Below are positions 32,419 to 36,448 of a stretch of 64,000 bases of DNA, piece by piece. The position numbers and the translations under genes are program-made. The number at the start of each line of letters is the position of its first letter. Positions within the stretch are counted from its first letter, which is position 1. Source of the stretch: an uncultured Pseudomonadota bacterium (GTDB lineage Bacteria; Pseudomonadota; Alphaproteobacteria; Rs-D84). Under the pieces are notes generated by a model. It was not told the origin of the DNA, did no database searches, and saw only the letters and a list, made by a program, of their open reading frames with translations. The DNA lies in assembly GCA_902788485.1 (NCBI GenBank), contig CADAKI010000001.1, positions 114,226-178,225 of the forward strand, read 5' to 3'.

Positions 32419-33078
32419 TTACTTTTTATTTTTATAATATTTTTCCCACGCCGCATCCATTTTTTCTTGATGACATTTTTCCAAGTGTTCATCCGGCGTA
32501 CCATCCAAATGTTCTGCATCGCGTGTGGTTTGTTCTTTGAATTTATCAACCAACGATTTTAATTTTTTATTTTGAATCAGTTTATTTTGAATTTCTTCAA
32601 ATTTATATGGCACATCATCGGTATTTTCGACATAAATTGGTTCAATTTCGTTTGCCGCGTTTTGCAACCCCGCCGCCACATCATCAAACACCAAATCCAA
32701 CGCATGGATTGCATCCGCCATATGATGTTTTTCGTGTCCCAACACCGCATCATATTCACAAGAACCCGATTTGTATTTTTTATCAATTACAATTTCAAAA
32801 TCGCGAAAACCAACGGTTGCATCCACAGAATTTAAAAACACACAATAATATTTACCATTAAACATATAACCAATTTCTGGTTTTAATTGATAAAAAGGCA
32901 CAACTTTTATAAACCCGCCAACCGGCCACAAATCACGGTCAGACGGCACAATATTAAAATCAGATTTTGCGCGTTCCAAATTTATTTTTACATCATGTTT
33001 ATATTCATCACACGGTCCCGCCCACGCACCACACGAACATAAAAACATAAACAAAAAACAAAATATATTTTTAACCAT
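32419..33078 (-). CDS. Secreted HExxH zincin-like protein, paralog B (possibly COG5661/DUF922-like)
   Basis: Signal peptide MVKNIFCFLFMFLCSCGAWA, motif VLGHEKHHMADAIH plus downstream EIEPIYVEN, paired Cys. Start ATG overlaps the stop of paralog A (ATGGTTAA). Confidence 0.5.
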   Translation of the reverse strand: MVKNIFCFLFMFLCSCGAWAGPCDEYKHDVKINLERAKSDFNIVPSDRDLWPVGGFIKVVPFYQLKPEIGYMFNGKYYCVFLNSVDATVGFRDFEIVIDKKYKSGSCEYDAVLGHEKHHMADAIHALDLVFDDVAAGLQNAANEIEPIYVENTDDVPYKFEEIQNKLIQNKKLKSLVDKFKEQTTRDAEHLDGTPDEHLEKCHQEKMDAAWEKYYKNKK

Positions 33079-33691
33079 TACATTTTGCCAATTCTTGATA
33101 TTTATCCTCATCTTCATCAACCTTGGCATTTCTGATTTCTTCGGCCGCAGATATTTTTTGTTTCACCAAAATCAAATCAGGATGTGTTTGTAATTTAACA
33201 TTTAAATCATCAATCGCGGCACCGATATCTAATTCTGATTCAACATAAATCGGTATAATTGAATTTGCCGCCGAATACACAGAATCTTTCAAATCATCTT
33301 GGAAATCATCAATTACCGACAAATATGCATTTATATGTTCACCTTCGTGTTCCAATACGGCACGATATGAACAAGAATCCAACCTATGACGCATATCAAC
33401 CTTGATTAAAAAATCACTGTACCCGATTGTTGCATTTATATCTTTGATACCGACACAATACCCGCCATTATTTGGCAATTCATCAATATTTACAATAATG
33501 TCGTATTCATCAATCAATGTTGCGGTCACATTACCATGATATAAATCCATAACTTTTAATGGTTGACCAACCTTTTTAACCCAATCAGGCCTGGAAATTC
33601 TGACCCCGGGACGCGTTTTATACGCAACACAACGGTCGTCTGCAAATGCAGATGTCACAAACAGTATTAAAAACAAAACATATTTAAACAT
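33071..33691 (-). CDS. Secreted HExxH zincin-like protein, paralog A
   Basis: Signal peptide MFKYVLFLILFVTSAFA, motif VLEHEGEHINAY plus downstream SIIPIYVESE. Start overlaps the virB4 stop (ATGTTTAA). Confidence 0.5.
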   Translation of the reverse strand: MFKYVLFLILFVTSAFADDRCVAYKTRPGVRISRPDWVKKVGQPLKVMDLYHGNVTATLIDEYDIIVNIDELPNNGGYCVGIKDINATIGYSDFLIKVDMRHRLDSCSYRAVLEHEGEHINAYLSVIDDFQDDLKDSVYSAANSIIPIYVESELDIGAAIDDLNVKLQTHPDLILVKQKISAAEEIRNAKVDEDEDKYQELAKCNG

Positions 33692-36107
33692 TTTTCTTTA
33701 AATACTCTTCGACAAAAGAACTCCCATATTGTTTATATAATTCTTCGGCCAATAATACCGATGGTCGCCCTGATTCAAATAATCGCAACAAATTACCCAA
33801 ACCACCCAATTCAGTATTCAAAATCACAGATTCACCTATCACCGGCCGTGACAATAAAACCGCACGTTTCAGGTTTGGATACGCCTTGCCCTGAATAAAT
33901 GCCATTTCCAACGGATTCAAATTCCAATGTTCGTAATCTGCGACATTTGCGCCCGGGTTACGGAAAAATAGAACTGTTTGCGCCTGGCCACGAACAACAT
34001 CACCAATTCCCAATTTATCCAAAACATTTGCGCGTTGAAATGCCGCCATATACGCCTGACGATTTTTACGACCTTCTTGTAAACCTTTGATAAAATTATC
34101 ACAGAACATTTTATTTTCTAACATCGGCGCGGTTTCATCAATCATAATCAATGACGGATTTCCACCAGATACCGTTGTATTATTTATTCTGTGTAAAATA
34201 TAAGAAATCACCGCCGGTGCCAATTCCGGGTCTTGTAAAATATCTGTGAAATCAAAAGTGGTAAGTCGCGCCTGTAAATCCAATGTATCACTATCTTCAT
34301 TAAACATATCACCATACTGTAATGTATCGACCCATTTTTTCAGTGATTCACGCATTTTTCCACCCGATGAAAAACAACTCTCCCACAGGTTTGATAACTT
34401 TCTATCTTTGTTCGCCAAATAATCAAAATTAACCGACACCGCACGCGCAATTTCATCCGCCGACACCGGGTCCGATTGTCCCGAAATCATCGCCAACCAA
34501 CGACGCAAGAACGCACGATTTGCGACCGTATCCGCCATTTTAAATGGATTCAGATGTGTTTCGAACGATTGATTTGTATCATCTTTATTTTTTTCGCGTC
34601 CCTGCATAGTGATATATTTACCACCAACCGCCAATGTGAAAATTTCGGCACCTTTATTTCTGTCGAAAAAGAACGCTTTCAACTTTTGATGACGTAACGA
34701 TTGTGCAATTAAAAACGAATACAATGTTGTTTTACCGCCACCGGTTGGACCAATCGTCAATGTATGCCCCACCGCCACCGGTTTATCAGACACATGAAAT
34801 TGAAATTGATACGGTGTTCCCGACGCGGTTGGAAAAACAACCAACGGACCCGGACCCCAATCAGAATTCGCAAAACCACGTGGCGAAAAATCCATAGGAA
34901 TAGACACCGCAGCGGTTTTTGATAATAATTTAAAACTGCGTGGGAAAACATCAAATCCCGGAATAATTGAAAACCATGAAACCCGCGCGGCAAATGTTTC
35001 AACCACGGGCGATACCCCAAACGACGCAGATATCTTTTTAAATTCTTTGATATAATTTTCCAAATCTTCGGGTGTATCACCAAACAGCATAAACAACGGA
35101 TAATAATTCACCATACTTTGATTTCCGGACACATTTTCATCCATGATACTTTGTGCCTCTTCCATTTGTTCCATTGTTGAATTTTCGGTATTTTCATCTG
35201 TGGTTGATTGTGTTTGACGCAACGCGGTTTCAACATCGGCAACACCCATTATATGAAAACCATTCATACAAATCATTTCACATTGAATTGTTGAAACATT
35301 TATAAAAAATTCTTCATCTAAATAATCAGGCGCAATTTTAAAAGAAATTGTTGCGGCATATTTTTTTACCCCACCACTTTCATATTTAATAAAACCATTA
35401 TTCATAAAATCAACATCATCAACCGTGACCAAATCCGCCATATCATTATTACAAACACCCGGTTCTGGTTTGGTGATTGGCGACAAAATACGACCAAAAA
35501 ACCGTGCCATATTATTCACAGTGTTATTTTTCAACATCGTTGGTTTATACGGTGCAAAAATTGATTCAATATAATTAGAATATTGATTTAATTTTTCCAA
35601 CGCATCATTACCACCAACCGATAAAACGATATAATAATTATTATTAAAAATCTTTAACCCTTGATTTTTCCATTTATCAAAAATTGCCTGTAAAGTCGGT
35701 TGATGAAATTCATAATCCATTTTTTCATCTACGGCATCCCGGGTTGTGAAAAACCGCAATATAACATTTGGGTCACGGATTTGATTAAACAAACTGGCGC
35801 GCAGGTCCAAAAATTGTTCACGCGTTGCATCATCTTGCATACTGGTCTGAACACCATCTAAATGATAAACCCGAACATATTTTCCATCAGAAATCTGTAA
35901 AACATTGTCTTTTTTAACATCCATAAAAGGCAGATATTCAGAATACCGCACATAACCAAATTTTGGAAAAATTTTGCGTGTCAATACCGGTAAATAAATC
36001 ATCAATGCAATAAAAACCACCAAAACCAGCATGACCAACACCGTGACAGTGATTGGAAAATCAGAACTGCCCGCAAAATAATTAAAAAATCCAGACCCTA
36101 TATTCAT
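33684..36107 (-). CDS. virB4: Type IV secretion system ATPase VirB4
   Basis: 807 aa; Walker A LTIGPTGGGKTT and VirB4/CagE architecture. Confidence 0.85.
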   Translation of the reverse strand: MNIGSGFFNYFAGSSDFPITVTVLVMLVLVVFIALMIYLPVLTRKIFPKFGYVRYSEYLPFMDVKKDNVLQISDGKYVRVYHLDGVQTSMQDDATREQFLDLRASLFNQIRDPNVILRFFTTRDAVDEKMDYEFHQPTLQAIFDKWKNQGLKIFNNNYYIVLSVGGNDALEKLNQYSNYIESIFAPYKPTMLKNNTVNNMARFFGRILSPITKPEPGVCNNDMADLVTVDDVDFMNNGFIKYESGGVKKYAATISFKIAPDYLDEEFFINVSTIQCEMICMNGFHIMGVADVETALRQTQSTTDENTENSTMEQMEEAQSIMDENVSGNQSMVNYYPLFMLFGDTPEDLENYIKEFKKISASFGVSPVVETFAARVSWFSIIPGFDVFPRSFKLLSKTAAVSIPMDFSPRGFANSDWGPGPLVVFPTASGTPYQFQFHVSDKPVAVGHTLTIGPTGGGKTTLYSFLIAQSLRHQKLKAFFFDRNKGAEIFTLAVGGKYITMQGREKNKDDTNQSFETHLNPFKMADTVANRAFLRRWLAMISGQSDPVSADEIARAVSVNFDYLANKDRKLSNLWESCFSSGGKMRESLKKWVDTLQYGDMFNEDSDTLDLQARLTTFDFTDILQDPELAPAVISYILHRINNTTVSGGNPSLIMIDETAPMLENKMFCDNFIKGLQEGRKNRQAYMAAFQRANVLDKLGIGDVVRGQAQTVLFFRNPGANVADYEHWNLNPLEMAFIQGKAYPNLKRAVLLSRPVIGESVILNTELGGLGNLLRLFESGRPSVLLAEELYKQYGSSFVEEYLKKNV

Positions 36108-36448
36108 TATGCCGCCAATCTCCGTGGAATTTTTCGTTTTAATAATTGAAATCGTGCCAAAATTATTTGACCAATTTGCGGATCTGTACGCGAATATACC
36201 GCCAATAACATATGAACAACAATAACCGAAATCAGAAATAATAACGGTTCAATTTGGAATTTAAAAAATACCAACGCCGACGCATAAATTATAATAAAAA
36301 CAATGAATTGCACAATAAAATTCAGCACCGCCAAATAATACGGCACATAAAATATGCGTGGCGGGTTCGCCAATGCTTTTAAAACCTGTTGTTTCATCTC
36401 TTCCTTATCCTGTTGATAATTATACCACTTTTCAACATTTTTTAACAA
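36107..36448 (-). CDS. virB3: Type IV secretion system protein VirB3
   Basis: 113 aa; LANPPRIFYVPYY motif and two TM segments; 1-nt overlap with the virB4 start. Confidence 0.7.
   Translation of the reverse strand: MLKNVEKWYNYQQDKEEMKQQVLKALANPPRIFYVPYYLAVLNFIVQFIVFIIIYASALVFFKFQIEPLLFLISVIVVHMLLAVYSRTDPQIGQIILARFQLLKRKIPRRLAA

Follow-up and report, generated by a model that had tools for sequence, protein, structure and literature searches.

A lineage-wide virB3-virB4 operon variant with predicted exported HExxH proteins in Candidatus Enterousia

The 64-kb stretch of contig CADAKI010000001.1 analyzed here (hereafter, the window; part of a 382-kb ENA scaffold) carries on its minus strand four consecutive open reading frames (ORFs) that encode VirB3 and VirB4 of a VirB/VirD4-type type IV secretion system (T4SS), both intact, and two paralogous, predicted exported proteins with an HExxH motif, referred to below as X1 and X2. 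The virB4 gene lies directly upstream of an X gene in 81 of the 82 related loci that were searched by tblastn with the window proteins; the single exception ends at a contig edge. Since this three-gene arrangement, virB3-virB4-X, is kept across the whole lineage, X is probably a new exported helper of the secretion machine. The arrangement is a lineage-wide T4SS operon variant with a partner from an unannotated protein family and not a new kind of system. The features of the operon are listed below, with lengths in nucleotides (nt) or amino acid residues (aa).

36107..36448, minus strand: virB3 (PF05101 VirB3, E 3.2e-5, above the cut-off; NF010474, E 4e-4)
33684..36107, minus strand: virB4 ATPase, 807 aa (TIGR00929 VirB4_CagE, E 1.5e-109; PF03135, E 4.5e-11)
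33684..33691, minus strand: 8-nt stop/start overlap of virB4 and X1, ATGTTTAA, read directly (context ...AAAAATGTTTAAATATG...)
33071..33691, minus strand: X1, 206 aa, the universal copy, an HExxH protein predicted to be exported
33335..33349, minus strand: HEGEH of X1 (His115, Glu116, His119), invariant in 111 of 111 distant homologs
33116..33118, minus strand: Asp192 of X1 in the motif [N/H]xxxD[T/S]xxxY, candidate third metal ligand (Asp in 110 of 111)
33071..33078, minus strand: 8-nt stop/start overlap of X1 and X2, ATGGTTAA, read directly (context ...TGTAATGGTTAAAAAT...)
32419..33078, minus strand: X2, 219 aa, a subclade-restricted paralog with a Lys-rich C-terminal helix, predicted to be exported
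32722..32736, minus strand: HEKHH of X2 (His115, Glu116, His119), read directly and invariant in alignment A6

The overlaps between these four ORFs are, from virB3 onward, 1, 8, and 8 nt, the first of them being TAATG. The maximal virB3 ORF, reported as 113 aa in an earlier note on this sequence, is present as described and starts at TTG; the true protein is probably shorter, as the gene callers (including the gene call of the source contig) and the orthologs of 93 to 98 aa favor the ATG at 36397, which yields a 96-aa protein. VirB4, correctly described as an 807-aa protein with a Walker A motif, has an N-terminal membrane segment and Walker A (GPTGGGKT) and Walker B motifs and is 71 to 97% identical among 80 related species. 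Both 8-nt overlaps claimed in that note are present, and the one between X1 and X2 recurs in loci L003, L005, L007, L009 to L012, L015, and L016. Longer in-frame ATG starts are available for X2 (at 33129 and 33111); the start at the 8-nt overlap is the one conserved in orthologs. No VirB2-like small ORF was found 5' of virB3.

The window comes from a member of Candidatus Enterousia in the order Rs-D84, as judged from a scan of GTDB species genomes, and not from the classical Rickettsiales. X1 is 99% identical to a protein from an alphaproteobacterial metagenome-assembled genome and has relatives in 248 GTDB species genomes; those bearing a name are Candidatus Enterousia, and the labels of several others read uncultured Rickettsiales or Alphaproteobacteria. 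Enterousia, within the order Rs-D84, are animal gut bacteria with genomes of <1 Mb, and the earlier framing of this operon by the rvh systems of the Rickettsiales is therefore not supported (PMC12306168).

In about 70 of 80 related loci, virB4 and X are spaced, stop to start, by -8 nt or by 0 to +6 nt (-1 nt in one locus). The trio stays intact where SufBD and YchF have been relocated (L029, L054, L058, L061, L078, and L082) and also where 1 to 9 kb of DNA with integrase, RhuM, group II intron, or ABC-F genes is found downstream of X, beside tRNA-Met. In a lineage with 25% GC, overlapping virB3-virB4-X genes are found again (VirB4 59% and X 24% identical), this time with a PBP-S11 gene upstream and pyrG downstream. 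Because these flanks are entirely different, the trio is the only block that this lineage shares with Enterousia. On one short contig, a VirB4 C terminus that is 86% identical is followed after 6 nt by an X that is merely 28% identical. Three paralog types occur at this locus: the universal X1; X2, located downstream of X1 in the subclade of the window; and a third type, inserted between virB4 and X1 in L070, L081, and L098. Thus, the inspection of related virB3-virB4 operons that the earlier note called for confirmed the presence of X next to virB4 but restricted the full X1-X2 pair to one subclade. The suggestion that these proteins might be T4SS accessory factors is strengthened by this conserved neighborhood, and the description of the operon as HExxH paralogs translationally coupled to virB3-virB4 is supported, with export being a prediction from the N-terminal sequences.

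The paralogy of the 206- and 219-aa proteins was borne out by BLASTP, which aligned X1 and X2 with 35% identity over 105 aa (E 2e-19); over the full length, the identity is about 25%. Both N termini, read by eye, combine a hydrophobic core with an AxA site and end in AFA or AWA (for X1, the predicted signal peptide is MFKYVLFLILFVTSAFA/DD). The alignments reveal four conserved Cys residues (21, 79, 107, and 204 in X1 numbering), and not two, as initially thought. Together with the AxA-type N termini, these Cys residues fit with periplasmic export. The HEGEH and HEKHH motifs are present as claimed. The IxPIYVE block, which had been described as conserved, is indeed found in each paralog (IIPIYVE and IEPIYVE), but among the orthologs only its Pro147 is conserved and its Glu is not.

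In our reading, X1 is the ancestral universal copy, and X2 is a faster-evolving extra copy of one subclade. The homolog search returned 154 homologs of X1, whereas a word-indexed search with X2 found only 9, and X2 is confined to the close clade. The faster evolution of X2 can be seen in L010, where it is 48% identical to the window copy versus 76% for X1. Describing X2 simply as a recent duplication was considered and rejected, as it is clade-restricted and yet only about 25% identical to X1; it has either diverged fast or is old and has been lost elsewhere, two histories between which a neighbor-joining tree of the X paralogs is an unreliable guide at these distances. The 3' ends of the genes were also compared. 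X1 ends in ...AAT GGT TAA (33071-33079) and virB4 in ...AAT GTT TAA (33684-33692). X1 orthologs that are 63 to 85% identical to the window copy mostly end in CN[G/D/K], and those that are 47 to 55% identical end in CF, CL, CV, or CM. The tandem duplication that produced X2 might have copied the virB4/X junction.

Conservation of the putative metal site extends far beyond Enterousia. In 111 distant homologs with a mean column identity of 13%, six residues (Gly53, Cys79, Cys107, His115, Glu116, and His119) are invariant, Asp192 is found in 110 (the remaining sequence has a gap there), and Cys204 is found in 109. Asn/His188, Tyr197, Tyr109, and Pro147 are also strongly conserved. Invariance of HExxH at such a low overall identity indicates that the motif is more than a chance occurrence. 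Loss of the motif in orthologs had been named in the earlier note as an outcome that would refute its proposal; the motif is kept in all orthologs and distant homologs. A motif of the catalytic type that is kept to this degree speaks for an active enzyme.

The IxPIYVE block had been put forward previously as a possible source of the third ligand of a gluzincin-like site. Its Glu151 was rejected as a ligand: orthologs have Arg, Pro, Gln, Lys, Ser, or other residues at this position, which varies even in close orthologs and does not fall among the columns with at least 60% conservation. The conserved acidic residue is Asp192. In the AlphaFold model of X1 (predicted local distance difference test [pLDDT] score of 90.8), HExxH is located in the first turns of the helix 107-129 and Asp192 at the C-terminal end of the helix 171-193; the model of X2 (pLDDT of 89.5) has the same predicted architecture. 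If the helices are arranged up and down, the beginning of the HExxH helix would be found at the same end of the protein as the C terminus of the helix 171-193, which makes Asp192 a reasonable third ligand and the best candidate suggested by the order of the predicted secondary structure elements. Sequence and profile searches of the PDB with X returned low-complexity helical noise only (e.g., apolipoproteins) and no zincin. A Foldseek search of the BFVD database with the X1 model gave nothing significant; weak matches to SprT, IrrE, and M10 had E values of >0.5 and were not used.

An exhaustive profile search showed that X is part of a large family, with 1,130 cluster representatives at E<=1e-3, of which 278 reach E<=1e-10; the majority are 200 to 250 aa long. 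A third homolog search, with a diverse alignment, returned Enterousia sequences only and added nothing. The Pfam comparison proposed in the earlier note was run on X1 and X2, and no family reached its cut-off; neither protein had any match at E<=1, NCBIfam gave none either, and none of the 111 members of the wider family passes any Pfam model. Sub-threshold matches to PF06037 (DUF922), all in the same register, were nevertheless seen in 20 of these 111 members, with a best E of 0.0013 and individual scores of 6.7 to 13.4 bits, under the Pfam gathering cut-off of 27 bits. The other recurrent sub-threshold families, eCIS_core (in 6 members) and Peptidase_M56 (in 3), are HExxH families as well. 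For a direct comparison, eight DUF922 genes annotated as such by PGAP were collected with a consensus-like query as bait. With hhalign, the alignment of the wide X family (A4) matched that of the eight DUF922 proteins (A5) with a probability of 73.8% and E of 2.9e-5; the 137 colinear columns take in GLT, GxC, and HExxH. With the Enterousia-only profile, only the HExxH helix aligned (probability of 0.9%). Because the wide-family profile aligns but the Enterousia-only profile and the Pfam cut-off fail, X is, judging by these profiles, probably a member of a sister family of DUF922 and not of DUF922 as currently defined. The earlier guess that X1 and X2 are DUF922/COG5661-type proteins thus holds as a remote relationship and fails as a family assignment. 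A zincin-like fold was predicted for DUF922 itself in a survey from 2013, in which the FFAS score to thermolysin was weak (-7.4; PMC3650047).

Outside Enterousia, four distant members of the X family from uncultured bacteria are found in the contexts aspS-X-grpE and X-arfB and beside crcB. Others are encoded on megaplasmids of cultured Methylorubrum, Rhizobium, and Microvirga; the annotated ones are listed as "hypothetical protein." No T4SS gene was found immediately beside any of the eight fetched DUF922 genes (600 nt viewed on each side). On Pseudomonas megaplasmids (L091:1-1095, L092:1-1095, L094:1-1098, and L095:1-1089), the DUF922 gene directly follows a gene of ~550 aa that is annotated as a tetratricopeptide repeat (TPR) or Sel1-repeat protein in three cases and as hypothetical in one. 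The two genes overlap by ~8 to 11 nt in three of the four, and in L094 they are separated by a 25-nt gap. We take this pairing to be reminiscent of protease-plus-TPR proteins such as BepA.

Complete systems offer a comparison for the position of X. The nearest VirB4 proteins in the plasmid collection are 31 to 33% identical and belong to complete VirB2-B3-B4-...-B11-D4 conjugative systems, in which the slot after virB4 is occupied by a "type IV secretion system protein" or a "hypothetical protein." The closest of these VirB4 proteins (33% identical) is encoded in a complete VirB-type conjugative locus on the Microvirga sp. VF16 plasmid NZ_CP069357.1 (L106, L088). This plasmid also has an X-family gene (WP_203447134.1), about 44 kb away and outside the T4SS locus. 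In Enterousia relatives, the inserts downstream of X (L053 and L025), the upstream DNA in L054, and the AT-rich lineage were inspected for T4SS genes and contained only integrases, RhuM, group II intron reverse transcriptase, ABC-F, and housekeeping genes. Downstream of X2, the window has the following two features.

32057..32407, minus strand: yjbR-family gene (PF04237, E 7e-21), 11 nt downstream of X2
31533..31560, strand not assigned: bidirectional terminator-like hairpin with an 11- to 12-bp stem, 5 GC pairs, and a T tail on both strands (consensus match only)

The yjbR-family gene, which follows X in the close clade only and is outside the conserved trio, is probably the last gene of the transcript. 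A consensus scan detected no terminator-like hairpins between virB4, X1, X2, and yjbR, and the hairpin listed above is the first such site 3' of the operon. No Rfam elements other than tRNA were detected.

The reading that we prefer, while holding it only tentatively, is that X is an exported hydrolase that depends on a metal and serves the secretion system specifically. X1 and X2 would be Sec-exported, disulfide-stabilized, metal-binding hydrolases of an unannotated HExxH family, with a metal site formed by His115, His119, and Asp192 and with Glu116 as the catalytic base. Their genes would share a transcript with those of VirB3 and VirB4, which are inner-membrane parts of the T4SS, and the 8-nt stop/start overlaps would keep their translation in step with that of VirB3 and VirB4. 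In the periplasm, they may act on a substrate tied to the building or running of the T4SS. The most plausible candidates are peptidoglycan peptides, in which case X would take on a task that VirB1 performs in other systems, and a subunit of the T4SS or of a pilus that has to be trimmed.

Several observations weigh against this proposal. The structure check suggested in the earlier note gave no support for a zincin fold: Foldseek searches of the PDB with the two confident models yielded no significant match of any kind (best E of 0.14 to 0.28, TM score of <0.2) and no zincin among the top 50 hits of either model, which leaves the protease fold unconfirmed. The window and all flanks examined lack virB2, virB6, virB8 to virB11, and virD4; these other T4SS components would have to be encoded elsewhere in the genome, and a working T4SS is assumed. 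We know of no experimentally established function for any member of DUF922 or the X family. In other bacteria, the six wider-family members whose surroundings were inspected are found in unrelated contexts and none adjoins virB4, so the X family is not intrinsically associated with T4SS. Finally, overlaps of unrelated genes are common in reduced genomes, and in this very operon X2 is followed by a gene for a cytoplasmic YjbR-family protein.

Another reading makes X a general periplasmic housekeeping protein, as its homologs in free-living Alphaproteobacteria would be, that came to be carried on the virB3-virB4 transcript through genome compaction and has no T4SS-specific role. Wider-family members adjoin aspS and grpE, arfB, crcB, and similar genes and not T4SS genes; the rest of the window is housekeeping; yjbR is carried on the same operon; and the divergence of X1 (~55% identity) resembles that of neighboring housekeeping genes (SufBD, ~50%; DUF374, ~51%). 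We nevertheless consider such a passenger role unlikely: the trio is the sole block common to Enterousia and the 25%-GC lineage, with wholly different flanks, it survives rearrangements on both sides, its stop/start spacing stays within -8 to +6 nt over about 70 species, and new paralogs are always inserted at the virB4/X locus. About equally improbable, in our view, is that X is an exposed or released component, i.e., either a pilus or stalk factor in the VirB5 position or a substrate that is loaded from the periplasm, as pertussis toxin is by the Ptl system; either would act on a partner or host cell and not on the envelope of the producer. The usual virB gene order puts VirB5 after virB4, which is where X is encoded. 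This slot has been repeatedly filled by strongly diverged paralogs (X2 and the type seen in L070, L081, and L098), and X2 evolves clearly faster than X1, as parts of the T4SS exposed at the surface typically do. Effectors of bacteria-killing T4SSs are also known to include HExxH domains, but these effectors have an XVIPCD-type C-terminal signal domain (PMC6536674). X lacks such a domain, which would not fit into 206 aa; no search aimed at XVIPCD was made. Moreover, X shows no similarity to the proteins encoded after virB4 in the nearest plasmid systems (hhalign probability of <1%), the 25 families given for the Pfam scan do not include VirB5/TrbJ, the PDB fold searches gave no significant match, and the free-living homologs inspected have no adjoining T4SS. 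A non-enzymatic structural subunit, analogous to VirB5, VirB7, or VirB8, in which HExxH would hold a structural metal, would agree with the operon position, with a small exported protein predicted to have disulfides, and with a fold unlike those of known zincins. We consider it very improbable, because a purely structural site has no need for the invariant Glu116 and because X homologs exist without a T4SS. The possibility that X1 and X2 are simply divergent VirB5, VirB7, or VirB8 proteins, named in the earlier note as a finding that would refute its proposal, was excluded, as there is no Pfam match at E<=1, no such family among the 25 most matched by the 111 members, and no fold match in the PDB.

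A stronger form of the preferred reading would make X an unrecognized, obligatory subunit or assembly factor of a pared-down T4SS, an exported enzyme present throughout Rs-D84 and in related AT-rich lineages, with a metal-site fold that is absent from the PDB and recruited from a widespread periplasmic sister family of DUF922. We consider this a real possibility but a rather doubtful one. The arrangement was not described, and no function of X-family proteins was reported, in the literature found on DUF922, on Enterousia and Rs-D84 in connection with secretion, and on T4SSs with HExxH proteins. T4SSs are well catalogued, yet we know of no HExxH protein that is a conserved operon partner of VirB3 and VirB4. 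Should X prove to be needed for the machine, T4SS biogenesis would gain an enzyme class. It would also provide the first functional handle on a family of >1,000 sequence clusters and, indirectly, on DUF922, neither of which has a structure or an assay, and a clue to the use of a strongly conserved VirB4, e.g., in cell contact, by uncultured gut bacteria with sub-1-Mb genomes. If X is a mere passenger, the operon would represent a clean but ordinary case of a conserved operon in reduced genomes.

The remainder of the 64 kb encodes housekeeping proteins (UvrB, AspRS, GyrB, LpxC/K, DnaG, TopA, PBP2/MreC, PheST, IleRS, and others) and a type IVb-pilus-like cluster (21220-27452, minus strand), located about 5 kb from the virB operon and syntenic in distant relatives. 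This cluster includes genes for PAP_PilO (26097-27452), a 242-aa ORF, a T2SSE ATPase (23740-25374), a T2SSF platform protein (22664-23734), and a 423-aa ORF without a family; we presume that it resembles the R64 thin pilus. The virB operon and the DUF374 gene are separated by the tRNA-Met gene (30613-30689, plus strand). The corresponding interval of relatives (L053:10632-19122, L025:10596-17618, and L054:92-6789) holds inserts that vary and encode tyrosine integrases, RhuM, a reverse transcriptase of a group II intron, Schlafen/AlbA_2, and RloB with an AAA_21 ATPase; it is probably an integration hot spot. A 590-aa ORF (3725-5497, plus strand) combines an FtsA/PilM-like part (184-326) with a complete ribulose-phosphate 3-epimerase domain (382-574); it is either a fusion, which would be unusual, or two genes taken for one. 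The small ORF 36692-36841 (plus strand; MKFLSSLKAWKKRGDIKQIRRGKQVILIDPKNPKLKAKQG...) in the virB3-SufBD intergenic region resembles, by eye only, ribosomal protein bL36. Sizeable ORFs without a Pfam family are found at 858-2204, 13196-14842, 17422-18093, 59628-60485, and 61957-63310; the first of these (448 aa) has only a weak match to the secretin/TonB STN domain (E of 0.003).

Among known systems, X can be compared with the zincins of clan MA, which in MEROPS includes gluzincins, aspzincins, and metzincins. Like these, X has the invariant His, Glu, and His of HExxH, predicted to lie on a helix preceded by a beta-sheet, and its conserved Tyr109 and Tyr197 could stabilize a transition state. 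A conserved downstream acidic residue, Asp192, is reminiscent of the aspzincins, but its spacing and context are unlike their motif, GTxDxxYG. As a hydrolase-like protein with a predicted signal peptide encoded in a T4SS operon, X also recalls the VirB1-type cell wall hydrolases, an analogy that extends to a possible mode of action only. VirB1, a lytic transglycosylase with the soluble lytic transglycosylase (SLT) fold, has glycan strands as its target; X instead carries the HExxH metal motif and shows no similarity to SLT in Pfam, and no VirB1 was seen in the window. X resembles VirB5/TrbJ in its operon position and size, in its predicted signal peptide, in a C-terminal half predicted to be helical, and in the tendency to tandem amplification and fast divergence. 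The two differ in that there is no detectable sequence or structure similarity between them, VirB5 has no HExxH, and X homologs occur without a T4SS.

The closest counterpart of X is DUF922. The X proteins are distinguished by Cys107, eight residues before HExxH and part of a Cys107-x-Tyr109 element, and by the C-terminal [N/H]xxxD[T/S]xxxY...C motif, whereas in DUF922 proteins a Trp is conserved ahead of HExxH, a Cys follows HExxH, and a D..T.HG motif is present. PDB sequence and profile searches found no solved structure for either family. Both are predicted to be exported proteins of about 190 to 240 aa whose N-terminal half is rich in beta structure and whose C-terminal half is helical, and they share the colinear G-L-T (Thr65) and G-x-C (Cys82) elements, the invariant HExxH, and an invariant Asp 50 to 73 residues downstream.

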